A stretch of 64,000 bases of DNA from Bilabrum cf. latius (Eukaryota): positions 992,001 to 1,056,000 of the forward strand of contig OZ237736.1 in assembly GCA_965178125.1 (NCBI GenBank), in the 5' to 3' direction. A program made the translations under genes and the position numbers. A model generated the notes under the pieces. That model made no database searches. It saw nothing but the letters and a program-made list of their open reading frames with translations, and was not told the origin of the DNA. Shown piece by piece: positions 1,105 through 64,000 of the stretch (its first letter is position 1; every line of letters begins with the position of its first letter).

Positions 1105-2960
1105 ATGGACGACATTCTCGTTGACGGAGAAAAACCACAATATACAGCGAAGGGTGCAAACACACTGCGCGGTGGAAAGCGCCAGTATGGATGCAGAATA
1201 TTGCAAGGAAACTTCGAGGAGCAACGGTATGAGCCTGGAATCTATGAAGGCAGGGAGTATGGGTCATTTGTCACCGAAGAAAGCGCTCGGTAGGCAGCAG
1301 GTAAGAACATTGACCAGTACTACTGAATTGATCGCCATGATTTCCCCGGCATGGACTCATGCTTGGAGTCATTTGATTCATTTGCGCAGTTGCTGGAAAG
1401 AAGCCCCGCGTGTTCGGACAGAGAGTCATGGAGCGCTTGGAGGAGGACGAAAGGGGGTCGAGGTACGACTACAGAAATACTATTCTTCCAGACAAGGCCG
1501 CAGACCCCACGAAGTGGACAAGCACCATCAAAGCCTCATACCGGCCGACAGGTCAGCCCGCGGATGAAACCGTCAGGGCAACCTCAGGAACCTTTCAAAT
1601 GCCATTGCATCCTCTCAAAGATGACAAAGAATAGAGAGAAAAGTACAGGCTGCGCTGGATCACCGGGTAGCTCCCATCTGCGACGAAGGGGCGGTTCCAG
1701 TCATCAATGGCCGAGGCGCAGGCCGGGGCCGTCGCGCCGCGTTTCAGGCCCCCACCGACACGAAAGCTCGTGGCAGTGCCAAAGTCAATGGAGATTTTGC
1801 GAGAGCGAGCCATCACCCGCCATGGGGCGTGGGCTCCGGTGCTGCTGCGCCGAGCCTTCGAGGTCGCCGAAGTGTCCGACGGGAGGGCCGGCCTGAGCAA
1901 GGAGGAGCTCGTCACACTGCTGCAGGACGCGGGGCTGTCCATGTCGGTTGACGAGGCGGACGAAGTATTCCTCTTCCTGGACTCTGACGGCTCCGGCTCG
2001 GTCAGCTGGCGCGAGTTCATCCGGATCCTTACGAGGGGGGGCGCGCCCCCGGGCGCAGAGTCGCTGGCCCGGGCGGCGAGAAGAGAGGCCAGGTCCATCG
2101 ACGCGTCGCTGCGGGCGGGCAAGGGAATTGCGGAAGCGACGGTCACGGCCGCGTCACTGGCTCGGCGGGAGCCCGAGGGCATTGCCGCGGAGGAGGAGAA
2201 GCAATAGGAGGAGGCGCTGGACCCCGTGCTCACGCCCGCCAGGCGCGGCGTGCTCGCGGGTGCCTTCGAGGACCTGAGGACGAGGCTTGGGGCGGACGGG
2301 GGGGAGGAAGTTGCGGGGGGTGGGCTGCCGTTCGACTGGCTGATGCTGCAGTGCGATGCATCCCAGCTGCCCCCTGTGCTGCTGTCTGCAGAGGCCAGAG
2401 CAGCGATGACCGCGGCTCAAGGCGGTGCCGGGCTGCCGGCTGCCAAGCGGGCCATAACCTCTGCAGTGCCCAACGAGCTTGCCAAGGGTGGCGGTGCGCA
2501 GGCGCTCTCTCTGCTGGTGGGCAGTTGCGAGCGTCTGGCGGGTTTGGCTGGCAGTGTGCCTGGACTGCGTGGTGGCGGCACAGGTGCCGGTGGGTCTGGG
2601 TCCGGCGAGGCTGTGTCTCTGGCAGACTTCAGCGAAATGCACGAAGGAGTCAGCATGGAGGAGGAGGACGACGGAGCATTTTCGCTCCGGATCGGGCTGG
2701 TTTGGAGGGTGGACTCGCTCGCGACCATGCCTGGGTCCGTGGCTGCGGCTGGGCCGAGGGGCAAGGCAGCTGCTCAGGCCACCACAAGTCTCGCGGTGCT
2801 TGCGATGCTTCAGTCTGGGGAGCGGGTCATGGTTGAGACGAGGCCCGGGCCGTTTTTCCGGCGTGGAGACAGGGCGACTGAGCGCCTGCTCGTTGAGGGG
2901 GCTCTCCGTCGCATGGGAAAGCCAGCGGATCAGTTGTAGCGCTGGAGCTTTGATTTTTGA
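1105..2960 (+). CDS. EF-hand protein with an N-terminal NWE-like motif (possible axonemal protein); intron 1301-1389; in-frame TAGs
   Basis: EF-hand DSDGSGSVSWREF. N-terminal YGCRILQGNFEEQR. Frame continues through TAGs at 1291, 1632, 1668, 2205 and 2937 to TGA at 2958-2960. Confidence 0.7.
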
Positions 2961-3114
2961 ATTCGATTGGAACTGTAAGCAGGCGATCTGCCTTGTACAA
3001 CCTTACGACCGAGCTGCTGAAGCCCGTTCGCCGCACTTGCGGTTCCGGCTTCCCGATAGCCACTCATGGCCGAATCCTTCACCACACGGAGCAGCGCTTC
3101 GCGACACAGTTATA

Positions 3115-6100
3115 ATGCATGCCAGAATAGGCATGATATGCCCTCTCCTTGCAATCGTGGGATCGATATGCTTCGGGGTTTTGAATTTCAAGGACGGCTT
3201 TTTCCTCTCGCGCACTGAGTTGCCGTTGGCCTCCCATTGCGAAGACCTAAGGGATTCTGGACACGCAGAGCTGAAAATGGTAGAATCACAGCGGAATTCA
3301 CAGTGCTGGGGCAAGCCACGCTTCAAAAAGCTCGTGTTACTTTTGGTGGATGCTCTCAGATACGATTTCGTTCGAGACATCGTCAGCGAGCCCCATGACA
3401 GCGAGGAGGGATTTCCCTCTATACTTCGTGAAAATGACCCTCAGTCTAAGCTGCACCCGTACGAATCACCAGTAGACTCGCAATCTCCAGGAAAACTTCG
3501 TGGCAGTGCTCAGGCTGACGAAGGCAGTAGCACCAGAAACAGCCAGCAGACGGAGTATCACAACCATATGCCCCGGCTGCAAAAGATTCTGAAGGAGTAG
3601 TATCCGAATGGGAGAATACGACTGCATCGATTCGAAGCGGATCCGCCAACGGTCACGATGCAAAGGCTCAAGGGTTTGACGGCCGGCTCGCTGCCCACCT
3701 TCATCGATGCATCGGACAACTTTGCTTCGCCTGCTATTCGCGAGGACAACTGGCTTACTCAAGCCATGAAGGCTGGTCGTAGAGTACTCATGGTAGGCGA
3801 CGACACATGGGCCCGGTTGTTCCCTGGGCTGAGCCAGAGCGACGATGCCACCACCTCGCGGTGCTTCCAGTTGGGTTCACCGGGGCAAGAGGGAAGGAAC
3901 TCATCAGGGGGGCATTCAAGCTGCTTTCCGAGCGCCGAGTCGTTTCCTTTGCCCTCGTTCAATGTGTTTGATTTGCACTCGGTGGATGACGGCGTCATGC
4001 ACCTGATGGTGCCTGCGATGAAGGACGGTGCCTGCGGCGTGGCCCGCGCTGCCTAGAAGCACGGTGTGCGCAAATGGCACGGCGAATCTCTGGACGGGGC
4101 GAAGGGAATCTATGCCAGCGATCCTACTGCAGATGCCTTGTAGGCTGACGGTGCCATTCTCGAAAATTGCTAGCGCGATGCGACAACCGAAGGCTCCCAT
4201 GGACCAGGGTACGATATCATCATTGGACACACTCTTGGCGTCGACCATGTGGGCCATAGGTTCGGACCTGCGCACGACACAATGCGAAGGAAGCAGCTGC
4301 AGACGGACCGCATGATTGAAGACGTCTGGCAGCACCTGGATGATGATTCCTTGCTCGTGGTGATGGGCGACCACGGGATGACACAGGGAGGAAACCACGG
4401 CGGGGCAGACGAGGAGGAGCGGGCGGCTGCAATGATCATGGCCGCAAAGAAACCGTTATATTACGCGCCTTTACTGCGAGGGGCGGGCTGCGGTCAGTCC
4501 CAGGGCGTGCAGGAGCTGTTTGCAGGGGCGGGGCGTGGGGCCGGTCAGGACACCTGCGTAGAAAGCAAAGATGCGGACACGGGCGAGGGGCTGGCCATTC
4601 GCGCTGCAGATCCGAGCAGTTTGGTATTGGATCACGGGGGCAGGAACGGTTCGTCGTCAAGCTCCCACACGAGGCGCTGGCACGTCGATCTGCTCGGAGA
4701 AAAGGCTGCAGCATCGGTGCACGGCCACTGTCACCATCACCATGTACACAATCACGGCCATAGCACTGCGACTGAGCCCAGCAAGATGGAATCATGGCTT
4801 GGTCTGGCTGATTCGGTCGTGTAGCAAGTTGATCTTACGCCGACATTGTCCATGTTGCTAGGACTGCCCTCCCCGCACGGCTCCGTGGGCCAGGTAGTGC
4901 CTGGCCTGCTTTGGGATGATTCGGTTGCTCGCCGGCTGGCCGACCTTGCAGAGCACGGTAAGCACATGGCCGAATCCTCCAACTCTCTGGATGCTGCATG
5001 CCAGGCTTGCAACCAGGCCAGGGTCTAGGCCCACGAGCAGGAGCTCCATCGCCTGCTTGCCAACGAGTTCTAGGTGCGGAGGTTTCTCATGCAGTACGGT
5101 GAAGTCGCTCCATCTTTCACCGCGTTTTCCGATCTAGAGTCGATGCACGTCGATGCGGTGTCTATGTCCATCGATACAATTGGATCCGTGGCAGCCAGGG
5201 ACAATTTGCTCGAGCCGTTGAGAGGTTTGCGACGCTATCTGGCTCGAGCCCTTGACAAGTGCCGCGAGGCATGGACCCAATTCGATGTAGCGCTGATGCG
5301 TTCGTCTTCACTGCTGAGCGGGTTTGGCCTATTGGCTGCCATGGGTACCGCGGCAGTTTTATCGTAGACCAAGAATAGCTGGGAAGTGAGCAGTTTGGGT
5401 GTATTGGTTGCAGCAACTGTTGGCGCGGCAGTCTCAGTCGTGTATTCTCCTGTTGACTGGCTGGCTGCATGCCTCTAGCTCCATAGCATGATCGTTTCCT
5501 TCGGAGTCCCAGTGTTGCAGCCAAGCCTGTAGGATCTAGAGGTATACATGGAGCGCTTGGCAGACGGGTGTAGAGATTCGTTGGAGGCATCTGTGGCTGG
5601 AGGGATAAGGCGAATACTGCTGCCGTGCGGGAGCCCACCTCGGGGAGAAAGCCAAGGCTTGCTGGACATACTTGATGTAATTCTAGCATCACCACAGCTC
5701 GCAATTGTGTGCGCTGCTCTAATTCCAATGGCTGTGGTCGGTGTGCGAGCTGTGGTGCGCTCCGCAGTTGCTATTACTACCGCAAGCCTAGGCAGCTTTG
5801 CTCGCCCTAGTCCGACGCTGTCCAGGCGGAACCTGCTGGACGTTGGTGCCTAGATTGGTGCTGGAGCCACCATGACTTTGCTAGCTCTATGTGAGTATGC
5901 GCGACGAGCTTGGGCGTTCGAGGCCATCGGATTTGCCATGCTGTTTGCCAGGGTAGGAGGCGCTGTTAGCAACGGGCTAGTAGAATCCGAGGCAGAGGGC
6001 ACTCTTTACGCGCTGGGGTTCGGCGTTGTTTGTGTATACGTCGTAGGGAGCGTGTCGGCCGGTGCCACCCCGTTTGACTTTCGGGTATTGCGAGTGATAC

Positions 6101-7767
6101 TGTTTGAGCAGAAGGAGGTTGTACCTGCCGAGGCGACTCGCGCGGCCTCGAAGCATGCGAATGCCAGCCAACAGCGAGCAGCTGATGGGTTGCTGCTAGT
6201 TTGTGCGTGCCTGCTTTCGCTGCGCTTGGGGTTTGCCTGGAGAGAGCACGCATAGGAAGGAATCGTTCCGTCAGCGGTCAGAACGTACGTGCCTGCTGCC
6301 ATCATGAGCGCGCTGGGACTCTGGCGGTGCTGGGGCTTGCCTGCAGGCATGAGTGAGTCCAGCAAGGGAGATAGCAACGCACGACAGCCCACACGATGGG
6401 TGCGTCTGCTTGCGCAGGGGCTCCAGGCATGTGCCACTGGGCTCATAGTCGTGTACTGGCGTGCTCGAACAGAGGCAGGCGCGGAGCTCGCGAACGTGCC
6501 GCTGCTTAGACTCGCCCTGCCGAGGCTCGGATACCTGCTGTCCGCCGTGGCAGTAGTGTTGCACGTCAGCGCTATGCATTCCACCTGGGGGTTCTCGCTG
6601 CAAACTGCACGTCGAGCGTTAACGTCTCTCTGTTGCGCCAGCAGGCAAGCCGACTCTGCAAAGAAACAGGCAAGCACGCCAGACATGACCAGATACCTGA
6701 CGCCAGACGTGGCATCGAGGCTGGTTGGGCGTGCAATTGGGAACAACCTGCTTGGGATAGCGGTCCTACAAGACGGGCTGCTGCTAGCACTGGCATCGTG
6801 GCCAATTGCAGGCCTCGTGTTGGGACCGAATGCTCCCGGCACAATCCTGTGCATCCTGGTTGCGAGCGTATCGCTTCCTCTACTCGTAGCATGGTCTCGC
6901 GTTGCTGCATTCGACCAAGCCTGCCGGTCTGCGGCGGACGCCGCCGTTCGACTGGGCTGGGCAGCCGCACCAATCGGTGCTTCCGCACAAGCAAGCAGTT
7001 CAGATTCGGGCGTCAGCGCTGTACAATTTTCGTCATCATCCAATGGCGCGCTTCCGGATGCCCTTCGCAAGGTTGCTGCTCGCAAGAGGCGCACCCTGCC
7101 AAAGGACGCTGCAGATAGTGCCGTCGCAGAGTCGAATCCTAGCAGCACAGCTGCGCCCGAAGGTAGCAATCGTAGCGGCCCAAGCGCTGAATCCACGGCG
7201 TAGAAGCAAGTCGGCCGTGCAACAGACCTGCCGGTGGCACTAACTCCATAGCTGCCAGCAGTACCACTACTCCATGCCATGTGTGTGTATGGCCTGTGCG
7301 CTTTTTCATTCTATGTGACGGGCCATGCTTCTCAGTTTTCTTCGATTGACTTTGCTGCGCCATTCGTTGGCTTTGACTAGTACGATTACATCCGAGGCAT
7401 TGCTGTCGTGGCGACGAGCTGCTACTGGGGCACAATTCTCGGCGGATTCGCGGTGGCCTCGACCGGGTTCATGTACTTTGCAGGTGCAGCAGAGGATCTC
7501 GTTCATCAGATTAGATCAAGGGTTGTGCAAGGTCAGCTGGGAGGTGTCTAGATCTCCATAGGGCTCAAAAGAATCGCGGCGCGACACGTCACGGCAGTCT
7601 TGATTGCGCTCGCCTCGGTCACTTTCGTGACGCTAGAGTTTACCTGCTTCGCGAGGCGGCACCTCATGGTATGGGCAATCTTCGCGCCAAAATTTGTGTT
7701 TGAAGGCATAGCTGTCATTGTTATGGCTGTTGCAGCTGTTGCTCACGGCAGCTTGCAGGCGGTTTGA
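3115..7767 (+). CDS. PIGO: GPI ethanolamine phosphate transferase 3 (PIG-O/Gpi13 family), intronless, about 1550 codons, 16 in-frame TAGs by my count
   Basis: Family motifs in one frame across TAGs: LLVDALRYDF, FEADPPTVTMQRLKGLTAGSLPTFID, GHTLGVDHVGH, GDHGMTQGGNHGG, QVDLTPTLSMLLGLP, FYVTGH, RRHLMVWAIFAPKFVFE. Ends in TGA. Confidence 0.93.
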
Positions 7768-7903: not shown

Positions 7904-9859
7904 TCACTGGCGCCCCCCATCGCTCGATTCTGCATCGATCTAACCACCCTCAGCCTGTTCAGCGTCACCTGACCTCTGCGCCATTCGCTTCCTCCTCCTT
8001 CTCAGCGACCGCCTCCTGCTAAACACGGGGTCTAAGGGAGACCCAAGGGCCTGTGCCGCCAGGATCCCACGTGCTAGCGCTGCATCATCCGGTGTGACCA
8101 GGCTCGAAACCCTCCCTTGCTGACCGAGCCTGCCCGTGCGACCAACTCTGTGCAAGAAGGACACGGCAGATGATGCAAAGTCCAGCTAGATCACATGGCC
8201 AACCTCGGTGGTGTCCAGCCCTCGGGCGGCAATGTCCGTGCACACGAGCACTTTGAGGTCGCCTTGCAGGAACCGCGCCATCGCCGCCTGCCTTCGAGCC
8301 GCCCCGATCTTCTTATGAAGCACAGCCACCGACAGATGGGGAGCACTCGACCGAATCTGCCGCAGCGCAGCGTTGGCTGATGCCACCGTGTTGCAAAACA
8401 CCAGGGTTTGGGGCATTCCCGCTGTATCGAGCTGCGTCAGTGCGGTGGTCTCATGCACCAGCTTGGTCGCCTTCAAATGAACCTCTATCTCAGTCGGATT
8501 CGACCCATGCCTGACTTTCCCCTTCTTTTTCCGCCTCGCATCCGCACGTACTGATGGAAGCACGATTTCTTCTGACAGCCTCAATATCTCGTCCCTATCA
8601 ATACTCTGTCCTTGCTCAGTGCTTGGTGGCGCTGTGGCTGGGTCACTAGTGGTCCCCACCACCGTACCATCCGCGGCAGATCGGTTTTCTGAGTCGCTAA
8701 TCAGTGCTGTGATTTGGCCCCCTAGCGCTGGGCTGATGCTGGGTTTGCCGTCGACCAGCCCGATGGGGTCATCGCTCGTCGCAGTAAGGAGGGCAGGCAG
8801 CAGGCGCAGCTTTGCCGCCTAGATGCAGTCGTGTCTCTCTGCCAAGAGCGCCTCTCTCTGGGCCATGAGCGCCAGGGGATCGATCCCCGCCGGCATGATA
8901 CCATCCTCCAGCTCTGCATGGGCATCGGCCTGCTCGTCGGGGCCGCTCCCGTGTGGCGGCTGCGCGTTGGCGGTACCCGCCACTATCCTGAGTGCCCTCT
9001 CGTCCCCAAACAGGGCCTCGTCCACTTCAATTGCACAGTACTTGTGCGCTGTCCGCTCCGACATGGAGTGCTGCAGTCCGGTCTGCACCCACGTGGCGTC
9101 GGGGAAGTTGCCCTGAATGAACGAGGTCGCGCTGGAGCTTCCCGCGTCCGGCACAGTCGCACCACAGAACACTGTTTGTAGAATCTGGTTTCGGGCCTTC
9201 GCTGATTTGCTGCTGCGGCTATGCCGGCCTTTCACGAGCCATTCGGTGACATCATCCGAGTACTCGCCCGTCAACAGGAGGTCGGCTTCGTCCAAGACCA
9301 CAGTGCGGAGCAAGCGCAGCCGAGACTGCGAGATGTTTTCGCGCAAGGCTTTCGGCGTAGCCACAAGAAGCGAGCACAAGTCTTTAGGGCGCGGACCAAC
9401 GGCCCCGTACGTTGGTCGAATCGCTTCGGTCATCCACGGAAAGCACTGCTGAGCAACTGCTGTGACTTGAAGTACAAGTTCCTAGGTTGGTACCAGCACA
9501 AGTGCGCTCGGTTTGTATAGATCCACTACATCAAGTCTCTTCAGCATGTCTACGATTGGGGCAATGTATGCCACCGTCTTGCCAGAACCAGTCTCCGATG
9601 CTAGCACTGTGTTCCCGCCTTTCAGAATTGCAGGAATCCCAGACTTCTGAATCAAAGTTGGCCTCGCTAGTCCAACAGCTGTCAGTGAATCGCATACATC
9701 TTTTGATAGACCAAGGCTAGAAAATGCTGTGCCAGGTTCAGCGAACAGCGTGGTGTTCGGCGTCTGGCACGCACGTTCAGAAGACCCATGGAAGCCCCTC
9801 CGTGCGCACCATGTCATTGGCAGCAGGCGTAGTCGGTGGAATCTAGTCATTTTGCGCAT
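7904..9859 (-). CDS. DEAD-box RNA helicase, probably organelle-targeted (DDX28-like); 4 in-frame TAGs
   Basis: Q motif PTLIQ, SETGSGKT, PT*EL, LDEAD, TDIAARGLD and HRVGRTGR all in one frame. TAGs at 9482, 8819, 8186 and 7940. TGA at 7904-7906. Arg-rich N-terminus. Confidence 0.9.
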
Positions 9860-10004: not shown

Positions 10005-13000
10005 ATGGCCAATTTAAAGGCAGGTACAAGTGATATTGTATCATTGGCTTCGGCTGAAATCGATGTTAGTAACCTTTTATGCACCATTAATGTTTGTAGT
10101 TGCCAGGTTGCTCCAACGACTAGATTTGCCCCGTTTACTGTGCTTGTCCATGCAGCGGCTCTTCCGTCAAATATCCGGTGGATTCACCAGTGATTTAGGT
10201 GAAAAAGAGTGGCTGTCGGCTGTATCTACATCTATAATCCCAGTGAGGCGATCTTGATGTTCTGGTCATGATCAGCCAGCTCGGTGGAGATACACTGATT
10301 CAGCCCCCCACCAGCATACTCAACCTTCGAGCCGCAGACGTACTCCAGTAAAGGGACTATCATCCCGATATTTCATGCGGTTCGTGATGCGGAGAGCGAT
10401 GCTAGCTCAGGCCGCATCGGACGGGCGGCGTTCGATGCATTGCTTCGCACGACTGCTGGGGCAGTGTTTTAGAACAGTGTGAGACCATTTGGCTGCTAAA
10501 GGTGCGACAAGCATTGGCGTTTTATCACGCGCTACACTCCCTATTGCGCTATTTAGCCTTCGCAGGCAATGCGGCGGATCGTGTCCGATGTAAACGGCGC
10601 CCAGCACTTACTCCTGTACCTGCTCGATGCTCAAGGCACCATATTTCCACAAAGCAGGGCATACGTGCAGCGAAAACTGCGAGAGGGGGTCATGCAAGTT
10701 CCATCTCGCAGCAGAGACGTCCACAAGATGGTGCATGATGCTCTCGAGCTGGACCAGGACGAGAGAGGTGCTGCTGCCCCTGCAGCCTCAGCCTGGCCCC
10801 AGGCCACGTCAGCCGCAGGGACGGGCGATTCTGAACAAGTCATGTAGACGGCAACTGCAGAGCGAAGTAGAAGCCCCCTGACAGCATTGCCGCTCTCAAA
10901 AGAGGCTAAAGCCCTGTCTCGAACAAGCACCCCCAAGCGATCGCGCAGCCGAGCTGGGTCCCAAACATTGGATGGGCAGCTCGGCACTTCTGCTGCCTCG
11001 CCCCCTGCAGCTGTGCCAGAAGAAGGATTAACTCCGCTTTCCATGATTGTCTCAGACAGCGACGACTCCGATGGGGGTGGAATTCGCGCGCAACCGCGAC
11101 GTGGTGCTGGATAGGCTCGAGAACAACCGAGGAAGAAGAGCGTGCGCCGATCCGCAAGTATGCTGCGCTCGCCTGTGCCAGCGTCAGGCGCTAGGGTACA
11201 CATAGATCAGCGCGCACCCATAGGCTCTGCTAGTGGACTTGCCTCGCCTCCAGGTCAGTGGCCGAGGGCAGGGCCTGCGAGAGGCAGCAGCGGAGCGACG
11301 CCAGCAAGGCTACCAGACAGGGTGCCTGCCCCGCCCAGCCTGCCACTGGCCCCTGCCTGTGATACTGATGGCACGCACACAGTTGCAGATCTTCCTACGA
11401 CGAGATCAAGAGGGAAGGCACCCAAGTCGCGCCCGCCTGCCACTCTCCAGCCGAGGCTGGCCACGAGTGACACGGTTGCTCGTGGGCCTCGGCAGCGAGG
11501 GCCTCGTCCTGTGCTCGCACGTGGAATGACTGGCGTGCTGGGACACAATGTATCATAGAGCGGTGCTTCCGCAGCTCCAGCGAAGGTGGGGCAATCTGCT
11601 TCAAGGAGCAGGAGCAGGAGCAGGAGCAGCCAGCAGTCAGTGGCTGCTGCCGCCGCCGCCCTTGCGGATGTTTCAATGGGAAGAAGATCCAGCAGCTAGC
11701 GGCACCAGCGAAAAGCAGCGAAACGCTCAGAACACGCTCAGCATTAGGACAAAGCTGCCTAGTATCGCGTGGTGGCAGGGGCATCTCCTCGCCAGAGCCC
11801 TACTGCTGCGGCAGCACCGCACGCTGATTCAACAGCAAACTGTGGCCTGATTCAAGCAGGGAAGCAGCCGACGGCTTTTACTGGTGATGATAGAATGTAG
11901 GTACTGCGGGGACGAAGCATCGGCCTGCAGCAGGATGACGTGAAAGTCAGTGTTGGTGGTGCATCGTACGATGGTTCCGAGCGAATGCCGCACGATGGGG
12001 CTGAAATCCAACTCGATGACGAAGCAGGCTCTAGGACTAGCTCGACCTTGCTCCATCAGGCTGGTAGCGCACCAATCCATGCCGGTCCAGCGAAGCCAAG
12101 GGGCAAACACACACGAGCACAGCCGACCTCCCGGCAGTCCCGGCAGAGGGGGTCTCGAATCACGGGCGACTTGCTAGCGAACTCCACGAGGATCCGAAAA
12201 GGCGCGATCGAGGCAATGATGGTCAAGCTGCTTGCTATCTACTGCAATGGGAATAAGACCAGTTTCCGGCGGGCAGTCGCTGCAGGCCCCGGCGCAGAGA
12301 GCAAACAGGGCGACTTGGAGCCCGACACGGGCAGCCTTGCGGGACTCTCTGAATTTCGCCGACTGTGCATCGATGCGGGCTTGGTCGGGCGTGGGGGCAC
12401 TGGCGGAGGGCGCGTAACGACCGGTGACATTGACACAGTGTTTCGGTCCGCTGTTGCGCGGTCAGCTGGAGTCGGGCATCTCGGGAAGCTACAGATATGG
12501 AAGCAGAACAGCTTTACGGTGGAGACTCAGGGGCGTTCGATGCTGCACCTTCGGCTCAACGCCAAGGGTTTTCTAGAGGCGGCTGCGCGGCTTGCTCGCC
12601 GTAGGTACTGCGCTCCCTCGTGGGCAGATGCCCGTCCGTCCCACTCTGATGACCGCGGCAGCGATACCGAGGAGGGGCATGCTGGGCAGCTCTCGTCATG
12701 GGAGAAGTTTCAACGTTGGAGGCAGCTTGGCCAGCGCAGTGTTCACGCCCGGGAGATATCTCCATCGATTGCCAACAGACTTGCGGTCCTTCAGCACTGG
12801 TTGCCCCTTGCAGCGGCATGCGGTGTGGATACAGATGTCCTAGAACACATCGCACTCCCTCTGTATGCAGCCGAGACGAGTCCAGCCATGCTTGACGACG
12901 GAAGTTCTTCAGCGTCAGGGAGCCAGCAGTCACCTACAGGAGGAGATGTGGGCATGGAAGCAGAGTCAGCTGTGTTGGCTGCACGGCAGCACATTGAACG

Positions 13001-18918: not shown

Positions 18919-18950
<32 letters not shown>

Positions 18951-21379: not shown

Positions 21380-22297
<918 letters not shown>

Positions 22298-22446: not shown

Positions 22447-22458
22447 CAGCAGCAGCAA

Positions 22459-49694: not shown

Positions 49695-51467
49695 ATGATT
49701 TCATTTGTTTCGTCGGTGCTGACAACTGCAGTGGCTCTAGTTGCAGTTGGAAGCGGGGCGATCCTAGCCCCGCCGAGCTTCCCGTGGTCAAACTCCAGGG
49801 GCGTAAACATACACTATACCTCCGGCGTGCCTGGGGAGACTAAAATGCTCGCTGAAGGGTTCGATGGGATCAGAATGGACCTGCACTGGGCAGAGGTCGA
49901 GACGGTCAAGGGCGTCTACAACTTCTCAGAATTTGACACTCTGGTTCAAGATCTCGAGAAGAATGGCTTGCAGACAAGGTACCTCATCCTAGACTACTCG
50001 AATGAGCTGTACTGCAAGGGCGGTGAAGCCCCGTAGACCCCAGAAGAGCGCTCCGCGTTCGCGAACTTCGCGGTTGCAGCTGCCAAGAGGTATAACAGCC
50101 AGGGAGTCGTCTTGGAGCTTTGGAACGGTGAGTATCGCTCGTTTGGTGATTTTAATAGCCTCATGAATGCCTCAATTTCGTAAATGCTGCTACGGGGACT
50201 CGCATCTCTCGCAGAACCGAACGGTGGCTTCTGGCTCAACTCGACTGGGGCTCACGCTCCAAACGCTACCCAGTATAGCGAGCTTCTTACCACCGTTGGA
50301 CAAGCCCTCGCAACACGTGCGCCAGGCACAGTCTTGACCGGGCCCACGACGGCTGGCATGGATTTCCCATACATCTAGCAGGTCCTGGAGCGCGGCGGGT
50401 TGGCCTACTTGTCCGGCGTGTCCGTGCACCCGTACCGGCCGTCTCCGCCTGAGAGCGCCTGCTATGACTACGCGACCCTGCGATCCATGATCGCGAATCA
50501 CTCTGCTGCCAGTGGCGGTGGTTGGTCAGGCGGCCCCTCGGGTGCTGCGTTTCCAAATGGCGACCCCTGGGTGGGGGCAGGCACCAGGGTGTCCCCCCCT
50601 ACCCCCGCGGGTGTTCCCCCGGTGCTATCATCGGAGTGGGGCTACACCACGTGCACCAAGCCGGCATCGTGCATCCCCGAGCAGTCCATCAGCATTTCTG
50701 AATCGCTCTAGGCGGCGTACCTCCAGCGGCGCTTCATAGCGGACGCGCTGTGCGGAGTGCCCATGTCCATTGACTACGACTGGCGGAACGGAGGTGATGA
50801 CCCGTCGCAGCGAGAGCAAAACTTCGGGGGAGTGCTGCACGACCCCACTGGCAACAGCTCGCAGCCGTTCGTTCCCAAGCCCAAGTTCCTCGCTGCCTCC
50901 GCCTACAAGTCGCTTGTGGGTAGCCTGCAGCTCCGTGGGAGGGTCGCTGCAGACGTCACAACTGCCGCCACCGGCTCGATGCAGGCCAGCGCGCCAGGCA
51001 GCCACGAGCCATCGAATGCCACATTTGTGGCGGAATTCGCTGGTCCTCCCCGCAGTCAAACCCAAACCCAATCCTCAACCCAAGCCCAATCCTCAACCCA
51101 AGCCCAAGCCCAATCCTCGTCCTCGCTCGTGTATGCGGCGTGGACGATGGGGAGTCAGGGCTATTGCGGCACGCTGCCCTCGCACCACGATTGCGGGTTC
51201 TTCGCTATCTCTGAGAAGGAGTGCGTGGAAGGTCGTGGGTGTTGCTACACCCCGAACCATGACGGCTTGCCGTGGTGCTAGTGGCCCATGGGTGGCGGCA
51301 GCGTGCAAGCGTCCTTCGACGTGGACGAGCAGGTGCCTCAGGGAGCGTGCTTCCAGCAGCGGTCCTGGAACGGCACTGCAGAGGGCAAAGTGTGCGCGGG
51401 GGGGTCGTCAGGCCGGCAGCTGTCGGTCGAACTGACCCGCATGCCTGTCTTTTTGTCTATGGATTGA
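49695..51467 (+). CDS. Secreted clan GH-A glycoside hydrolase (GH39/GH5-like) with a trefoil (P-type) module; intron about 50128-50214
   Basis: Signal peptide, GVNIH, IRMDLHW, ELWN|EPN, VSVHPY, SSEWGY, *AAYLQR, YDW, CGFFAISEKECVEGRGCCY...PWC. TAGs at 50034, 50376, 50709 and 51279. TGA stop. Confidence 0.8.
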
Positions 51468-53868: not shown

Positions 53869-56346
53869 ATGGTGTCTGCCTCTGCATCCGCACCTGGCAA
53901 ACTCATATTGTTCGGTGAACATGCGGTGGTCCATGGAGCAACTGCTGTTGCAGCAGCTCTGAGTGATCTTCGAGCATTTGTTGATGCAGTAAGTGTGGCG
54001 ATTTGCAGCAAAGAAACCACCAACCAATCAGCACGTTCGTGTACTCAAACTGAAAAATCCTATATCTAACTAAGTTTGCAGGAAATTACGGAGGATGCGT
54101 TGATTTCGGTGACAATACCGGACTTGCAGAATGCAAACAGAAGCAGTGGGCAAGTCCCCGGATCTGAAGGGAATCGACCAGTGTTTACCTCCACCTGGAG
54201 AGTGTCTGATATATATACAGAGTTCTTGTCGTCTATCCCAGAGGCACCGGAGCCCGGCGCAGCGGTCCGACCGACGGAAGCAACCCGAGCCGCGCTTGAG
54301 GCACTTGCGGGTAAGGTGGGCGACAGCAGGGTGCAGCCCGCAATGCCATGCGTATTTCTCGCTTGCGGGATCCTTCGAGATCTGTTGTTTGACCCTGCCT
54401 CGCCTGATGGCGTGACTTCGAAAGGTACAGGCGTCAAGCTTCGTGTGGGCTGGCCATCGCTCCCAATTGCTGCTGGGCTCGGCTCCAGCGCCGCATACTC
54501 CGTGGCAGCGGCCGGTAGCATGATTCTCCTTCGAAAGCGCGTCCACGATCTAGAGAATGTGTCCAAGTCAAAGGAGTCGGAGTGGCGAGAGGCCTCCGAA
54601 TCCGAGACGGGAGGGATCAACGACTGGGCCTTCTGCGCTGAGGCCCTCTTCCACGGGCAGCCGTCCGGTCTTGACAACACGGTGAGCTCGCACGGAGGGG
54701 CCATTGCCTTCAGCAGATCCCCCCATCGCATCCGTGCGCTGCCCCCCCTTCCTCTGCTCGACATCCTGGTGGTCAATACGAAGGTCCCGAAGAACACGGG
54801 GCTGCTTGTCAGCGGGGTGCAAAGGAGGCACGACGTCATACCAGAGGTGGTCCGTCCGGTCTTCACCGCCATCGATGCCATCTCACGCACGTGTGTAGAC
54901 CTAGTCAAGGCGGAGCACCGCCGCAGGATGCGAGTGGCGGTGCGGAAGAGGCTCTAGAAGGTCGGGGCGGGCGGGGACGGCCTCGGGCTCTCTCGCAGGG
55001 AGGCCCTCGCGTTGTTGGGCGCGCTAGCCGAGAGCATGGAGGAGGGGGACAGGAGGGGGAAGGGGGGGAATGATGAGGAGGAAGAGGAGGAGGAGGATGA
55101 TGGCGATGATGACGATGAAGACGACGGGCAAGCCGACGAGAGGCAAGCTGGATCTGCTAGTGGGACGGCTGGCACGACGGACGTTGGGGCGTCAGCGGCA
55201 GCAGTGGATATCCACGGTTCGGCCATGGATCAGGAGATGGGTCCCGCCGGTGGTGGCCAGCACGGGTTCCAGTCCACCAAGGCTTCAGGCAGTGCTGCCC
55301 CCTCTGCACCCTGCGGGCCAGCGCAGGGCTTGGACGACGAAGGGGGCCCCGAGGTTGCGACAGCTGCAGGTGCTGGTGCTGTTGCTGGTGCCGCGGAGGA
55401 CTGCATCAGTCCGGTGCCAAGCGGGCACGTGGGGTGGTCCGAGAGCGACGGTTCCATCCCTTCCTTGACTCCAGTTGCGCGGGAGCAGCCGATCGCTGGG
55501 CATGGGTGCCCTGGCGCCGACTCATCGAGCGCGGGCAGCAGCGGCAGCAGCACAGACGGCGGCGGGAGTGGCAGCGGCAGCGGGGGAGGGGCCGGTGAGA
55601 TCCACAGGACTGGAAGCATCCTAGGACTAGGCAGCGGCCGAACGATGGACGATTCACTGAGGCGGTAGTGGTCCGACCACGCACAGAACGAGGCGACCGG
55701 GGCCTCCTTTGCCTTCGAGGCGGCCCAGGGAACAACGAGGCGGGACAGGCTAGGCAGCGGTGCGAGTGCCGAGGTCGTGGACGCTGCGGCAATCGCCGCC
55801 GCGGGGGAACCGGCGGGTCGCAAGCAGGTACCGCAGGGTTCGTCGCGCCCCGGTAGCGACGATGGGTCGGCCAGGCACCGGGCTCGCTCCGAGGGCGAGC
55901 TGACGCACGCCTTGGTGCAGGCCGCTGCGGAACATGCCATCACGGCGCCGCGCGGGGACCAGCCGCCGGTGTTGCCTACACCGGGCGACACCGCACGAGC
56001 TTCACGAAGGTTCGTCAGGATGCTGTCCTCCCTCGTGGAGACGAACCACTGCCTCCTGAACGGGCTCGGGGTTGGGCACCCCGCTCTCGAGACGGTTGTG
56101 CAGCGGGCCAGGACCAAGGGGTTTGCTGCCAAGCTGACGGGGGCTGGAGGTGGCGGCTGTGCCCTCGTTCTGTTGCATGCCGCGCTGCCGCCTGGCCCGT
56201 CCGCGGCTAGCTCCAGTGAGAGCGTGCCGAAGCCCTCCGGCAAGGAGCGGCGAGCACGCGTGGAATCCCTGCGGAGGGAGCTGGAGGGGCAGGGGTTCGC
56301 TTGCTTCAAGACGAGGCTGGCAGGGCCCGGAGTACTACTGAAGTGA
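53869..56346 (+). CDS. MVK: Mevalonate kinase with a large acidic/Gly-rich insertion; intron 53989-54081
   Basis: SAPGKLILFGEHAVVHG, LPIAAGLGSSAA, HGQPSGLDN, NHCLLNGLGVGHP, KLTGAGGGGC. TAGs at 54955 and 55666. TGA stop. Confidence 0.92.
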
Positions 56347-56522
56347 TTCAGATCTTGAAAGATGGTCGGAGGCAGTTGGAGGTCACGAGCGCTAGATCCG
56401 GATTAGCTTGTGCGGAACGGCTGCCGGCAGCATTTGGCGCCGCGCATAAGTCCATCATGGTTCCGCAAGCAACCGCTTCGCGCTCGACTCCAACCTACCC
56501 CTTGTTCCACGCTTGTCCACTC

Positions 56523-59500
56523 ATGGATACGTATACCGAATCAACCGCCCATTCTGATAATCAGAGTAACACTTCACGGGCTCCCAATACCGCGTCAAAG
56601 GACTCTGTCGACATGGTGCTGGCAGCAAGCGCGGCTGCGTCGGCTGCTGAAGCCATAGAGAGGCAAATGTTGGCAGAAACAGACGAGCGGCTGCGGCTGT
56701 AGCATAGACTAGCACAAAATGCGGACAGTGATAGCCGCAAACTGGCTGAGGAGGGGCCTGAAGGGTCAGACAGCTCGCAATCGGCAACAACCAGGCAGAT
56801 TGCGCGGCTGATGAATTAGACTCGGATGATGCAGGTCCGAGTCGAACGAGAAAAATCGCAGGCAGCTGCCGTACGGGCTGAGCTTGAGGAGGCCCAGCAG
56901 CACATCGCTCACTTGAAGAACGCGCTCAGTCGCAGTGCAGCTGGCACTGGCTAGGAGACACTGGCAAGGCTGCACTCACGGTGCGAGCACCAAACTCGCC
57001 AAATTGCCGGGCTCCAAATGGAAAAAGTGAGGCTGTAGCAAAGTTTGGACAGTGCGCAAGCAGAGGCTGATTCGAAGCGGCCGGAGCAAGAACGACTGCG
57101 GGAGACTGTGGATGTGCTGCGAGACAGTCTGGAAGACGCCCGCCAGGAGGTGCTGCGGTGCCAGCAGCAGTTAGATTCCGCAAAGGAAGATACTCAGGCC
57201 GCCCTTTCTGTTGCATCAAGCTACAAGGAGACGTTGAACCGCCGTAGCACAGCCATGGACATATCGCAGCGAGTTGCATACGACCGCGACCTCCGAACCG
57301 CGGTGGAGCGAGCCGTGGCAGCAGCGAAAGAAGCGTGGACACATAGATCGGAAGAATTAGCACGTTAGCTTAAGGTACAAGTCAACGAACTACAAGAGGA
57401 GCTGGTTTTGGTGCGAGAGGATGGACAGTTTGCTCAGGAGAGTCTCGCTGTCCGGCTGCAAGCGCAGTACGAGGAGGCAACCGGGAGGGAGCGAGAATAG
57501 ATTCGAGCCGAGATTTTGGCCCTTCGCGATCTTGTGGAATCGGATGCTGCGCGCACACGCCGTGACCACGACACTCAGCTCAAGCAGCAACTGCAGTTCT
57601 CGCTCAAGGCCGCCGCGTGCTTCCGGCTCGGTGCCGTAGCTGCTCGGTTTGTTCTCAAAAGGAAGATGAAGTCCATGGCGCAGTGGAAACAGGTAATGCA
57701 TGGATACTCACAGGCAAGACGGGCTAGAATTGCCATGGGCATGTGGTACCTGGGTCGCAAGCGGCGAGCAGAGTCGGCCAGGACCGTGCTCCGATACTGG
57801 CACGCTCTCGCGAGGCTGCGCGGGTGTGGCGTTGAGGCGGAGCTACTCAACGGTCTCGTTGGCCCGAAGCGTGCAGCGGACAGCCCAGAGCAAGCTTCGA
57901 AGTATGCCGTTGTTCGCACTTCACTGACTCGAGCCGAGGCGCTTGCGGGTACCAGACTCGCCCCAACAGCATGGCCGCGGGAGCAGGACCAAGGCCTCCA
58001 CGATGCACGGGCACGTGACCATGAAGCTATAGTTCCACGTGAATCAGCGGGTGATAGAACACTGAGAGGATACGAGACGCTCCATACACCGTTTCAAAGG
58101 CAAGGCGTCCGTCCTTGGAGCAGGTCTTTGAACCCCAGCTAGGCCTTGGTGAAGTTCGGTACTGACAGGTATGGCGAGCCACAGATGGCTAGAACAATAT
58201 CGTCACCTTCCATGGGAACTGCTGACGAGCTGATCAGGCCAAATACTCGACCGGTTTCTGCCGGTGATGATAAGCCAGCTGCGCAATAGCTGCAAGACTC
58301 AAAAAACACGGGCTGCATTCTCGCAGTGGTGCTTGGCAACCTCACGGCACACCAGAGTGCTGCGCTGCGTCCATCTGCTTCCGAGCTCCTGCTCCACTCG
58401 GCCAGAGCCATTGAGGATGCGTAGTACGCTCAAAAGCTAGCCAGGTCCTGCCGTAACGTGCCAGGAGATACATTGCTGCATCCAGCGGAGGAGCTTTGGC
58501 AGCGCAGTAGAGCTGACAGCCTCACACCACTTGGACCAACTTTATCTGGTTGGACCGACGACTGGGACATTGTGGAGCACCACAAAGATTTCAGACATAC
58601 TGATAAAACTACTGTGAGTACGGGGCAAGCCAGAGCCCTTTCACCGCAGGACCGGGCTCGCTTGCTCCCCTGGGGAGGCATCGGAAGCAGTGTAGCCGAG
58701 CAGATGCGCCGAGAGAAGGCGCTTTCTTCCCCTAGTCAAGGAGTCAGCGCACCGAGTCCCACCACCGAGTCTCCAAGAAGAAGCGATTCAAGCAGTGTGC
58801 ACGAGGCACTCCAATCTACCCGTTCAAGCGCGGCAAGGTCAGACGTTCCTCGAGCGAGCACTGCCGCAGAGGTAGCCCTCCCAGCGCTGCTCGAGATGCG
58901 AACCAAACGGGCCAGGCTGAACGCAGCAATGCGCTTGAAAGGGCCGACCCAGGTTCACTCCAGTGCATAGAATCCAGACAGCCCTGCAGGCACTGCAAAG
59001 CCGCTGGCGCCATTGGACGACTCGACAGTGGCTAAGCTCGACTCCATGATCGCGAGAGCACGGGAATCGTCTCCGGTTCGTATCGGCAAACGTCTTACCC
59101 CAGACGCACGCAATGTAGTCGAGGTGCACCCACCACCAGGCGTAGTATTGCCGCATTGCGACGGCGACACAGTCGCTGCACCAAGCACAATCAGCCTGGG
59201 CGCGCTGCCTCGCATGGTGGTCCGGATGCGGCGGCGGCGGCCGGGACCTCGGGTCACTCCCGACACGAGCAGTCAGCCGCAGCAATCCATGCTGTTTCGC
59301 ATGAGTGAACAGTCAAAGGTTCTGTTCGTGGAGGGGCATCGCTTGCGCGGCTTGGCCAGACTGTCGGGTATCATGCGTCGGGTGTACATGCGTAAGCTGC
59401 ACCTCGGATTCACAGCGTTACAAAGGCACTACATGCAAACTGGTATCCAGTTGAGGTTACGCGACGTGCCATCGCCCTCAAGGACGCATGAAGAAATCAG

Positions 59501-59636
59501 TTATGCTTCCAGGACGGATGTCGATGAGATGGCAGCCCTGCGGAAAGCGCTTGCCGAGGTATCGGCGAAATTGCGGCAAGCAATTCGGGACAAGGGCAGG
59601 GCAGAAAGGGCTCTCATCGCTGCCGGGGTCGATTGA
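56523..59636 (+). CDS. Coiled-coil protein of unknown function, multiple in-frame TAGs; start uncertain
   Basis: Fragments ending 56702, 57368, 58142, 58970 and 59636 share one frame joined by TAG. E/Q/R/A-rich heptads. TGA at 59634. Confidence 0.65.
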
Positions 59637-59771: not shown

Positions 59772-62700
59772 TCACTCCTTGGTACCAACGGTGAACATGC
59801 GGATCTGGCGAACATCAAAGAATGGCAGGTCTAGATTGCGAAGATATACTACGCTCCACAGATTGCGCTGCATCCATGCCTGGGTGTCTTCCGTAGGCGA
59901 GTACCGCTCCACAACGAGTTCGTGTGGGCGGGGCAGCACGCCGACGAGCGTGTCATCCTGGATGCAGCGAAGGACCGCCTCGTCGTCAACAGAGCCGCCG
60001 CCCGCCTGGATGAGGTTCATGACTCTGGGGCGCAGATGCCGCAGGGCCAGCTTGATTTCTCGGAGCGGAAGCATCGACTGCTGTTCTTCCAGCCATGTCT
60101 GCAGCTGCTCCCTGTACCGTCTCTGCGCAGTGAGATCAGCACCTGCCTGGTCTTCCTCCCCGTCAGCAGGGGCAGCCTGATCTTCTTCGGGTGAAGCGCC
60201 ATCAGCTGGTCGCACACCATCGGTGGCCATTGGCACAACGTCAGGAGACGTTCCTTTTCCGGCGTCTTCGCCGGGATCGCTCTGCCCATCACCGCCCTCC
60301 GCATCACTGGAGCTTGCCTCTTCGGGCAGCGGATCCATCACGTCATCCACCACAAAAGTCTCTAGCCTGTGCAGGATCGCTGCCTCCTTCACGAGCGCGT
60401 AGATCAGGTACGCATGACCATCGTACTGATACTGAATCACGTTACGAAACATCTGCAGCAGTCGCTGCAGTTGCAAGACGCTGTCCGGGCCGCGAAGCAC
60501 CTCGGATGGGTCGCCGAGAACCGTGAGCAAACTCGCAATCTTTGTGCCAGTCACCATGTGCACTCGTTTCACGAACACAGACACATTGCTGAGAACCAGC
60601 ATGAGCAGCGAATGCATGCGGCGATGGTTGCTGGAGCCGTTCACGAGCACCTTGTGCGCTGTGAGGTACAGCAGGTCACCATGGCATCCCTCGAACGCAG
60701 GCAAGCCGATCATCGGTGGCAGCTCTGCAGCTGACACAGTCTTGTTCAGCTGCACGCAGAAGCTCCTGTAGCCGCTTAAGAACAGCAGGATGAAGCAGAT
60801 TAAATGCACTGTGCCCCAGTCCTTGCTGAGCCGCTCCCTCCACAGGTAGTAGCAAAGCGGCCTGATCAAGCGGCACACATCCTCCTGCTCAACAACATGC
60901 CGAGCAAACGAACGATTCGAGTCCAGTAGATGCCACAGCAGCAAGAGGGCTTCCTGGTGGCTGCCGAGCGCCTTCATGCTGAACGGCAGTACCGTCTGCT
61001 TGCTCTTGGACGAGTTCGATAGGAACCTCACGATTGTACCAAACAGAGTCTCAAAGTCCGTGGTGTCAGTGATGCCTGCCATCAGCCCACGATACGCATT
61101 GTACACGAGCGGTCGCAACCGAGGCGAGGATTCTTGCTACAACCCGTCCTACAATGACCCGGCGCCAGCATCGGTCGAGGACCCTGCAGGCTCAGCAGGA
61201 TGATCTCTGTCCTCCCCTGCCCCAGATGCTGGACCTGCGGCAGCCTAGCCGACAGCGTGTGCACCGGGGGCCCCGTCGCCCCGCATGGCAGCCTCTTCCT
61301 CCTCCTCTGCTGCTAGATGCCTCGCGTCTTCACGGACTTTCTCCGCGTACGCCCCTGTGTCCCGCACCAAGGGCTCATCGGCGGGTGGCCGGTAGTCGAG
61401 CAGCAGCAGGAGCGCCTGAAGCGATGCATCGATGAACGGCTCCCTGCTGTCAGCCTCCATGGCAGACACGTACGGCAGCCCCCACCCTTCAGGGTCAAAG
61501 GACACCACCGTGTTGATGAGCGAGAAGAAGAGGGTGGGCAGCATGGGGCAGTCAGGGCTGATAGCAGTTTCGTACAGGGGGCACCTCGCCGAGGCCCCGG
61601 AGCCGGTGTCGACGTACAGGGGCTGCGACATGCACACGATAAGCAGGCGCAGCAGCTCTGTCCTGTTCTGTTCCCAGACTGATGACCTTGGTGGGCTCAA
61701 TGAGCGGAACACGACACCGCCAGACCACAGCAGGCTGGGCCAGATGGAGTTGGACAGGTTGGGAGCAAAGGGTGGCACCTCGCCCTGGATGACCGGCTTG
61801 GCCGGGGTTGAATCCGGCTCCCCGTCAGCCTCATCCATGCTTGCCGACTGGACATGCCCGTTCTCAGCAGAAGTGCCCGCGCTTGGTTCGTCGTCCTCTG
61901 GTGATGCCAACGCACCGGATGATGCAGCAGCAGCAGCAGCGCCGCCGCTCGCCACCCCTACATCGTCACCATCTTCGTCTATACCGGATGTTTGCTCGCC
62001 TTGCACCTCATCTGTAGATTCGTCGGATGTCTTTTCAAGGTCTTTTTGACCGCCAGATGTGCCCTCCTCGTTCCTGGCTGTTCTCGCCATGTCGGCATGC
62101 TGCTTCTTCATGGTTAGGAACCTGTCTCGGAAGAGAGCGAATTGCATGGCAGACACAGTAAACTCAGGCGTGAACAGCAGTCGCATTACACTATACACAA
62201 GGCGTTGGCCAAGGGGCGCACCATTCCCAGATTCCTGCAGCTACTGCCGCTAGATCTGCGCGGCTTCGGAGCTCAGCTGGCTGGACGAGCCTGCCGCACT
62301 CTGGTCGGGCCCGGCTGTGCCGGTGACCTCGGGAGCTTCGGCGCCAGAGTCTGCCCCGCCGCTTTCCCCCTTTGCCTATTCAGAGCCAGTATCTGACGCA
62401 GTAGCATCCTCTGTGCCAGGCTGGTCAACTGTGGTGCTCTACCCAGCCGCTGCGCTACCAGCGGCAAGCTTGTCTTCCAAGAACTGCTCGAGATAGTCGC
62501 CTACTCCGACCCAGACTTCCATAAGGTCTTCATCGTGCTGTTCCGGCGCGGTTGCAGATGAAACTGGAACACCAGCTGCCGTTTGTAGCATCGAGATTTG
62601 GTCATCCCACAGCAAGCGTTGCGTGAAGGCATCCTCCGTGTTTTCAAGCAGCACAGGCAAGATTCGAGTGAGCAAACGAACCTGCATGATAGTATTAAAT

Positions 62701-63054: not shown

Positions 63055-63205
63055 GCTGAAGATTGTCAACGCGAGCAGCCCCGCGGCGGCGCTGCCAGAT
63101 CGGAGAAAGTTCCGTGGTTCGGGGAGAGCGACAGCGGCGTTTTAGATTCGGGCTTGGCGACGCGCTGTGGTGGATGTTGTGTCTAGCAAACACAGAAACA
63201 CTTAA

Positions 63206-64000
63206 TCAAACAAGCAGCTGCCCAAGCGTAGAGGTGTCTGCCACGTACTTCATCGCCTTGACCGATGCCAGCGGGGCCTTGCCCTTGTGGAACTCGTCCT
63301 GCTTCCACGCGCTCTCAGTGGATTCCACCTTATCGTTCTCGCCGAAGACTTGCACTGACAGGCGTCGGGGCCAGTCGCTAGATGACCCGCTCTCACTTGC
63401 CCCAAGCACCCTCTCTCGATACATGCTCTCGATGTCTGCAAGCGTGACACTCCCGGCACGCAGCTGGGCCAGCCTTTCCTCGGCAGCTGCAAAATCGTAT
63501 CGCAGGGATGAGATCTCCTACCACATCCAGCTGGCAGCCTCTTCCATCCTCTACGGTTTCTTGCGATACTCTGCATCCAGAGCATCCACAAGTGCCTCCC
63601 AACGTGTGCGATTCTGCTCGCCTGATCCCTTCCCGAGCGCAGCGATCTCGACCGGGACGGTCTACTCCAAGAAGGCAGCGATGCGCCCGTCCATCAACGC
63701 AGCACTCTTTCCGCCCTGCGCAATCACGTACATGATATCCCTGGCGTCGCTGCCCCCCGTGGCACCGCTCGCCCCAGCCGCCGCTTTGCCCCGGGCGGCC
63801 AGCGACGGAGCAGTGTACGCGAGCCGCGTGCTGCTCTCGCGGTATATGGGATCAATGGGCTCTGCGGCCCCCCTGGGGGCAGCTGCAGACTGCGTCCCTC
63901 CAAAAACGATGTATCCAAGTTGCTGCTGCGTGCGCAGTGTCTCAAATGCGGGCGTTTCTACTGCGTCGCTGAGCAGACTGGCGGCAATGCTCTTCCTGGC
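63206..64000 (-). CDS. M16 metallopeptidase (insulysin/pitrilysin-like), C-terminal part, truncated by the window edge
   Basis: PAFETLRTQQQLGYIVF and W*EISSLRYDF (TAG at 63518). TGA at 63206. Confidence 0.75.

Follow-up and report, generated by a model that had tools for sequence, protein, structure and literature searches.

Our data indicate that in the nuclear genome of Bilabrum cf. latius the codon UAG has very probably been reassigned from stop to glutamine, with UGA (mostly) and UAA still ending genes. The stretch of DNA analysed, hereafter the window, comprises 64,000 nucleotides (nt) of contig OZ237736.1 (GenBank assembly GCA_965178125.1, positions 992,001 to 1,056,000 of the forward strand), and all coordinates given below are counted from its first letter. 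As part of the same reading, and with the same high confidence, we take it to be nuclear DNA from a protist whose genome is rich in GC, densely packed with genes and furnished with small GT-AG introns: the GC content is 56–69% (~0.59 overall), and at least 24 eukaryotic genes are found on both strands. An initial annotation of the window had read TAG as a sense codon in many unrelated genes and proposed that UAG had changed from stop to sense in the nuclear code of a gene-dense protist; both proposals are supported by the reading frames, by spliced contigs and by conservation. In 21 gene models, built from ATGs, Pfam matches and introns seen in contigs, 16,641 codons hold 115 in-frame TAG, 0 TAA and 0 TGA.

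Under the standard code the longest open reading frame (ORF) of the window has 619 codons. Reading TAG as sense yields ORFs of 2992, 1769, 1694, 1405, 1138 and 988 codons, while the same treatment of TAA leaves the maximum at 619 and that of TGA brings it to 773. Summed ORF length is largest with TGA as sense, since among the stop triplets TGA is the most frequent one in DNA as GC-rich as this; the sum is thus non-discriminating, and the evidence that does discriminate lies only in the very long frames and their homology. It should be noted that the absence of TAA and TGA from the models follows from cutting the frames at these triplets; from triplet counts, ∼260 TAA or TGA would be expected in a random frame of equal total length. 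Seven TAGs fall within single Pfam envelopes (TAG 126 in DEAD, 558 in Helicase_C, 103 in Carn_acyltransf, 293 in a protein kinase domain, 104 in LtrA, 50 and 65 in RmlD_sub_bind). The sole in-frame TAA belongs to a GH5-like gene, in an 87-nt stretch (50127–50213) that starts with GTGAGT, ends with CAG and breaks up a conserved glycoside-hydrolase motif.

The PIGO, mevalonate kinase (MVK), CPT2 and HID1 genes and the two RNA helicases named in the initial annotation all match the corresponding Pfam families (Phosphodiest, GHMP kinase C, Carn_acyltransf, Hid1 and DEAD/Helicase_C), and its counts of 16 TAGs in PIGO, 4 in the DEAD helicase and more than 25 in a giant ORF agree with ours (for the last, 29 from its ATG and 30 across the whole frame). 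A SUMO gene, also named there, was found neither by a crude motif scan nor by reading the intergenic frames, and in the frame assigned to DUF1751 the first two TAGs turned out to lie in an intron (28971–29062) and are not counted as coding. PIGO has 2836 homologs at E ≤ 0.001, the named ones being PIGO/gpi13, and the top PDB match of the DEAD helicase is DDX28 (E 1e-37). The genes with in-frame TAG are the following:

1428..2960, +, EF-hand protein (Pfam EF-hand_8/7); 510 codons, 4 in-frame TAG, TGA end
3115..7767, +, PIGO/GPI13, GPI ethanolamine phosphate transferase 3 (Pfam Phosphodiest); 1550 codons, 16 in-frame TAG, TGA end
7904..9859, -, DEAD-box helicase, DDX28-like (Pfam DEAD, Helicase_C); 651 codons, TAG at residues 126, 347, 558 and 640, TGA end
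10569..19478, +, giant low-complexity ORF (no Pfam family); 2969 codons, 29 in-frame TAG, TGA end
24042..28247, -, DEAH-type helicase (Pfam Helicase_C); 1401 codons, 12 in-frame TAG, TGA end
29063..29917, +, DUF1751/TMEM115-like last exon (Pfam, contig joints); 2 in-frame TAG, TGA end, upstream introns 28815-28912 and 28971-29062
31101..32162, +, short-chain dehydrogenase (SDR) last exon (Pfam, contig joints); 1 in-frame TAG, TGA end, intron 30946-31098
32264..34186, -, CPT2, carnitine palmitoyltransferase 2, main exon (Pfam Carn_acyltransf E 2e-151, spanning the TAG; PDB CPT2 E 5e-114); 640 codons, TAG at 33977-33979, TGA end, introns 34188-34292 and 34477-34600
37388..42361, -, NT-C2 domain protein (Pfam NT-C2); 1657 codons, 11 in-frame TAG, TGA end
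42534..43313, +, RmlD-like epimerase exon 1 (Pfam); 2 in-frame TAG, in the Pfam envelope, intron 43314-43498
44328..45989, +, LtrA-family membrane protein (Pfam LtrA); 2 in-frame TAG, TGA end
46847..49000, +, secreted glycoside-hydrolase-like protein (weak Glyco_hydro_39, E 0.0027, under the Pfam cut-off); 2 in-frame TAG, TGA end
49695..51467, +, GH5-like protein with trefoil domain (Pfam); 4 in-frame TAG, TGA end, intron 50127-50213
51665..53743, +, protein kinase (Pfam kinase); 6 in-frame TAG, one of them (residue 293) within the kinase domain, TGA end
54076..56346, +, mevalonate-kinase-like protein, GHMP kinase (Pfam GHMP kinase C); 2 in-frame TAG, TGA end
56457..59636, +, coiled-coil-like protein (no Pfam family); 10 in-frame TAG, TGA end
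59772..62687, -, HID1/Dymeclin family protein (Pfam Hid1 E 7e-80, Dymeclin E 3e-75); 971 codons, 7 in-frame TAG, TGA end
63209..64000, -, M16-peptidase-like C-terminal part, truncated at the window end (Pfam PqqF-like_C_4); 3 in-frame TAG

The residue read at TAG

Alignments suggest, at the same high level of confidence as for the reassignment as a whole, that TAG is read as glutamine. The codon-versus-column check proposed by the initial annotation was made on three genes, as a Codetta-like sum of log-odds over the 10 TAG columns (out of 21) in which half of the rows or more have a residue. Gln scores +16.1 bits, and the next residues are Asn (–5.0), Ser (–5.1), Arg (–5.3), His (–9.1) and Ala (–9.4), with all others lower. 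As a control, sense codons were put through this procedure: 58 of 60 come out right, the exceptions being AAA and ATA, and random 10-column subsets of sense codons are decoded correctly in 5145 of 5400 draws. PIGO alone gives Gln +7.2 versus Ser +1.8, with 53 of 55 controls correct.

Two individual columns are near-invariant. At PIGO TAG 653 Gln stands in 131 of 133 filled rows of an alignment of 145 rows (150 best representatives minus five near-identical fragments). The CPT2 TAG column has, among 120 homologs, Gln in 93, Phe in 17, His in 5, Ala in 2, and Ser, Cys and Tyr in one each; Gln is present in all 35 best homologs and also in two metagenomic loci, L002 and L003. Alignments with PDB entries put Arg, Asn and Phe opposite TAG, which is a misleading effect of sampling, as shown by closer orthologs that have Gln.

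Residues opposite a window TAG were also read in relatives at least 60% identical. This gave eight sites, with Gln at five, Lys at two and Asp at one. Gln is found at DEAD 347 (P0001, 91% identical), PIGO 570 (P0124, 92%), PIGO 751 (P0133, 89%), PIGO 343 (P0126, 62%) and CPT2 103 (P0274, 85%; P0275, 81%; and the metagenome contig L001, where the codon is CAG). Since Gln makes up 4% of codons (672 of 16,641), the binomial chance of five or more Gln in eight is ∼5e-6. A relative has Gln at PIGO TAG 1047 as well, and the CPT2 of L001 has a TAG of its own that aligns with His (CAC) in the window. For the NT-C2 protein, pairwise comparison with the L001 ortholog places Gln, Ala, Ala, Arg, Arg, Arg, Ser, Ala and Asp opposite TAG; this protein is poorly conserved, and its alignment was left unused.

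In codon usage, TAG accounts for 115 (14.6%) of the 787 Gln codons, next to 483 CAG and 189 CAA. Six models with high GC at third codon positions (GC3 ≥0.79) contain 2 TAG in 2050 codons, and seven with low values (GC3 ≤0.64) contain 78 in 8838. CAA follows the same trend, and TAG therefore behaves as a non-preferred synonymous Gln codon.

By analogy with other eukaryotes in which UAG is reassigned (Panek et al. 2017, PMC5304391), UAG would be read by a tRNA-Gln with anticodon CUA that pairs with UAG and not with UAA. The release factor eRF1 would have lost or weakened its recognition of UAG, so that it no longer competes at this codon, and would retain recognition of UAA and UGA.

Transcripts, gene ends and competing explanations

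The initial annotation had called for a check that UAG persists unspliced and unedited in transcripts. Contigs of four runs were compared with window positions 24001–44000, and two of the runs, X5 and X6, stem from two studies, neither of which is the one behind the best-matching DNA run. Contigs of X5 and X6 skip 12 stretches, 11 of which are 86–195 nt long and are bounded by GT..AG when read on the strand of their gene. Because their joints skip introns, we regard these contigs as spliced RNA. Among the pieces listed, they show 0 letters differing from the window and cover 25 of the 29 model TAG codons of this region (DEAH 12/12, NT-C2 9/11, DUF1751 2/2, SDR 1/1, CPT2 1/1), the two epimerase TAGs and two of NT-C2 lying outside these pieces. 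One X6 contig spans the NT-C2 region 37384–41109 with 0 differences, and a CPT2 contig joins 32199–34187 to 34293–34476, exon to exon, with the TAG at 33977–33979 retained. Since spliced contigs of two other studies match the window at its TAGs, these are not introns, edits or assembly errors. X23, the only run recorded as RNA, gave six pieces of 37–205 bases with 5–9 differences each, which speak neither for nor against this.

The twelfth joint (32671–32794) leaves out 122 nt from within the coding exon of CPT2; with its non-canonical CG..GC ends and 25 letters on its short side, it has the look of an artefact. It is present in contigs of X5, X6 and X8, with loose ends at 32643, 32749 and 32818, and probably represents a chimeric contig or another locus.

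Gene ends point to retention of the other two stops. Of 20 model terminators, 19 are TGA, one (Arf copy 1, whose paralog has TGA at the same end position) is TAA and none is TAG; the initial annotation had noted TGA at those ends that match protein C-termini. UAA remains a stop, judging from its absence in frame outside an intron, from the failure of TAA-as-sense to extend any gene and from the end of Arf copy 1. UGA remains one, judging from 19 of the 20 ends, from its own absence in frame and from the ends of PIGO and CPT2, which agree with those of relatives (for CPT2 the alignment with L001 reaches all but the last residue or so). We accordingly hold it very likely, as part of the whole reading, that both are kept as terminators, UGA mostly. 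The other genes of the window are these:

488..763, -, ribosomal protein S28e exon (Pfam Ribosomal_S28e E 2e-25); no TAG
20018..20905, -, Arf GTPase copy 1, with introns (Pfam Arf E 1e-70); no TAG, TAA end
21380..22270, -, Arf GTPase copy 2, tandem duplicate (Pfam Arf and alignment with copy 1); no TAG, TGA end
22534..23499, -, aldo/keto reductase exon (Pfam); 321 codons, GC3 0.82, no TAG, TGA end
29930..30636, -, TMEM234-like gene, two exons (Pfam TMEM234 on each exon, joint in X6); intron 30290-30377
34788..36419, -, sulfatase, two exons counted, 34788-35465 and 35661-36419 (Pfam, contig joints); no TAG, TGA end

Several observations weigh against UAG as glutamine. At three of the eight close-relative sites the residue is not Gln: Lys stands opposite TAG 1261 of the giant ORF (P0123, 94% identical) and PIGO 314 (P0126), and Asp opposite PIGO 353 (P0126). 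Ala is found opposite PIGO TAG 1422. Among 119 rows, Arg fills the column of DEAD TAG 126 in 117 and Asn that of TAG 558 in 114; the rows that have Gln in both are P0002, the best eukaryotic match, and P0006. Pfam bit-score sums for the main families of five genes (Gln 1068.4, Lys 1067.5, X 1065.7) do not separate Gln from Lys. Scans of the window and of the metagenomic loci L001–L004 found no tRNA, and eRF1 is not among the genes of the window. The zero for TAG among terminators is partly built in, the frames having been cut at TAA and TGA. Finally, run kinds were guessed by software, X6 being flagged 'probably DNA', and the RNA origin of the contigs is read from the intron-skipping joints only.

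The alternative that survives best, which we nevertheless consider improbable, is an ambiguous UAG, read as Gln within genes yet ending some of them according to where it stands or what surrounds it, in the manner of codes that lack a dedicated stop. With frames cut as described, a true TAG terminator would hide behind a short false tail, and the last TAG does lie just 7, 12 and 24 codons before TGA in the EF-hand, DEAD and DUF1751 genes. Against this, five models, namely both Arf copies, the aldo/keto reductase and the sulfatase, which lack TAG, and CPT2, whose end is far from its TAG, all end in TGA or TAA. PIGO aligns to its last residue with the relative P0128, 72 codons beyond the last PIGO TAG. 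TAGs are not enriched toward 3′ ends (37, 24, 28 and 22 per gene quartile), and the base after TAG is distributed as after CAG and CAA (chi-square P-value 0.70); this even spread and unremarkable 3′ context argue against a context-dependent read-through signal. Nor do the long frames of the window contain in-frame TGA or TAA, a feature of codes without a dedicated stop of the Condylostoma and Blastocrithidia type.

It is less probable still, indeed quite unlikely, that UAG is sense for another amino acid; Lys is the best alternative, and the remaining near-cognate candidates are Leu, Ser, Glu, Tyr and Trp. The Lys residues in P0123, P0126 and also P0128 (at PIGO 913), the mostly Arg and thus Lys-like column of DEAD TAG 126, and Pfam scores for Lys and Gln within 1 bit of each other would fit such a meaning. 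Gln to Lys is, however, an ordinary replacement, and the two near-invariant Gln columns, the Gln at five of eight close-relative sites and the log-odds all speak for glutamine, with Lys, Leu, Glu, Tyr and Trp all below –9.4 bits as opposed to +16.1 for Gln. The columns likewise gave no sign of UAG as Leu or Ser, the latter scoring –5.1 bits.

That the TAGs are untranslated, being assembly or sequencing errors, edited or spliced out, or parts of dead genes, is hardly credible: guessed run kinds and the loss of rare variants from Logan contigs are the sole support for it, and against it stand the 25 of 29 TAG codons identical in intron-free contigs of two other studies, the same pattern in the separate metagenomic relative L001, TAG positions common to relatives, protein sequence of relatives that is 89–96% identical downstream of the TAGs, and, as an argument against pseudogenes, 115 TAG versus 0 TAA or TGA in frame.

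Relatives and further features of the window

A UAG reassigned to glutamine is not confined to the window. The code is common to at least one diverged relative, L001, whose CPT2 is 80% identical (72.5% at the DNA level) and contains one TAG, and in which the ortholog of the NT-C2 gene is a frame of 1547 codons with 16 TAG. Six near-relative fragments end inside a gene (P0001, P0124, P0125, P0127, P0132 and P0133), and all six stop directly before a window TAG, at DEAD TAG 558 and PIGO TAGs 162, 314, 638, 788 and 1047; most TAG positions are therefore shared and conserved among relatives. Parts of the giant ORF are covered, among 8000 scored candidates, by three fragments from relatives 88–95% identical. 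Two of them end before a window CAG and one before TCG, which, as these are protein sequences alone, gives hints only. The more distant locus L003 (1–12338, GC 0.675) has a CPT2 46–53% identical and no TAG within three long frames (770, 579 and 625 codons, ∼2000 in all), one of which, with a response-regulator domain, ends in TAG. This is weak evidence that more distant kin may keep the standard code.

CPT2 is at most 42% identical to that of any named species. Its best named matches are Hondaea (42%), Achlya (41%) and Mucochytrium (40%), followed by oomycetes, Fonticula and Capsaspora, and scans of genome contigs and viral contigs found no CPT2 relative. A FastTree phylogeny was built from 48 of 121 rows, namely the query, P0274–P0309 and the named rows, all with 550 residues or more. 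It places the query within a clade of 17 environmental sequences (support 99), separate from Labyrinthulomycetes, oomycetes, a haptophyte and opisthokonts; this is a tree of a single gene and cannot place the organism. One PIGO match is a EukProt entry labelled GSMAST32 (MAST), the other named ones coming from animals, fungi and an amoebozoan. From these matches a stramenopile affinity is possible.

Run X8 holds a relative ∼95% identical that covers CPT2. In X8 and in X9–X22, runs with varied organism labels that include protist, algal and marine metagenomes, 4–26% of sampled words of the CPT2 stretch are present. The organism or its kin seems to be widespread in marine samples or cultures, small word shares being no evidence of habitat.

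Three genes of the lists above were absent from the gene list of the initial annotation: S28e (488–763), the TMEM234-like gene (29930–30636) and the M16-peptidase-like end (63209–64000). No Rfam family was found in the window. The Arf tandem pair (19950–22362, minus strand) shows 93% column identity over 1075 columns, with differences nearly all in the flanks; the copies are nearly identical across both introns and all exons and split only at the last codon and the stop, which looks like recent duplication or gene conversion. Three repeats lie in or close to genes. A 34-nt tandem repeat (8.2 copies, 99% matches, 37134–37413) is found at the 3′ end of NT-C2, whose stop is at 37388, and just past it, (CAG)n with ∼20 copies (22447–22506) is close to the 3′ end of the gene for the aldo/keto reductase, and a 6-nt repeat of 10.7 copies (25150–25214) within the DEAH helicase gene encodes a Gly-Gln run.

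Comparison with known codes

Changes of the nuclear code are rare outside ciliates, and different meanings of UAG and UAA are rarer still: the uncoupled cases listed in PMC11687900 are Iotanema, a rhizarian, Scotinosphaera and a few ciliates. A combination of genome DNA, spliced transcripts and diverged relatives offers a natural experiment on how eRF1 drops UAG and keeps UAA and UGA. A GC-rich genome with TGA as its main stop also bears on the spread of a new Gln codon, here one that acts like the non-preferred CAA. There is a practical side too, as annotation under the standard code breaks the genes of this organism and of its environmental relatives at each TAG, which is visible in fragmentary public predicted proteins.

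UAG-only reassignment to Gln is a type of code already known elsewhere (PMC5304391, PMC11687900). Apart from Iotanema, it is reported for Protocruzia tuzeti and for two lineages of phyllopharyngean ciliates (McGowan et al. 2024, PMC11687900), which use the same table as the window, with TAG as Gln and TAA and TGA as stops. The window differs from these ciliates in its GC-rich DNA, its long genes with spliceosomal introns and the lack of any ciliate among the best named matches, in agreement with the view of the initial annotation that its contents look unlike ciliates. The same assignment has been named 'genetic code 15' (PMC9523058); in this phage code the mechanism involves bacterial release factors and not eRF1.

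Codes with both UAG and UAA (UAR) as Gln occur in many ciliates, hexamitid diplomonads, ulvophyte green algae, the oxymonad Streblomastix and the aphelid Amoeboaphelidium (PMC11687900). They share with the window a stop reassigned to Gln, presumably via tRNA-Gln variants, but in them UAA is sense too, whereas in the window TAA is missing from 16,641 codons in frame and serves as the terminator of one Arf gene. UAG alone has gone to other residues in the rhizarian exLh (Leu), in Scotinosphaera (Ser) and in some phyllopharyngeans (Leu) (PMC5304391, PMC11687900). In all of these, as here, the meanings of UAG and UAA are uncoupled, and the residue differs from the Gln of the window.

A full-text search, covering few subscription journals and no supplements, found no report of this kind of code, either for stramenopiles or for other GC-rich protists outside the ciliates and metamonads. 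We give about even chances to the UAG-only-to-Gln code having arisen independently, as an undescribed case, in a lineage of marine protists that is GC-rich and has TGA as main stop and in which at least three diverged forms share it (the window, the 89–96% relative and L001 at 80%). If the origin is independent and L003 is standard, living relatives could bracket the switch, and a comparison of them could directly reveal eRF1 variants that distinguish UAG from UAA.

A close counterpart is Iotanema spirale (Panek et al. 2017), a member of Fornicata in which UAG alone is reassigned to Gln, UAA and UGA are stops, and the meaning was likewise read from conserved alignment columns (PMC5304391). Its eRF1 carries a T32G change in the GTS motif (PMC5304391). 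Iotanema is an anaerobic endobiotic metamonad, known from its transcriptome, with UAA as the main stop (PMC5304391); in the window, by contrast, TGA ends 19 of 20 genes, GC content is 59%, and the best named matches of CPT2 are stramenopiles at ∼42%.

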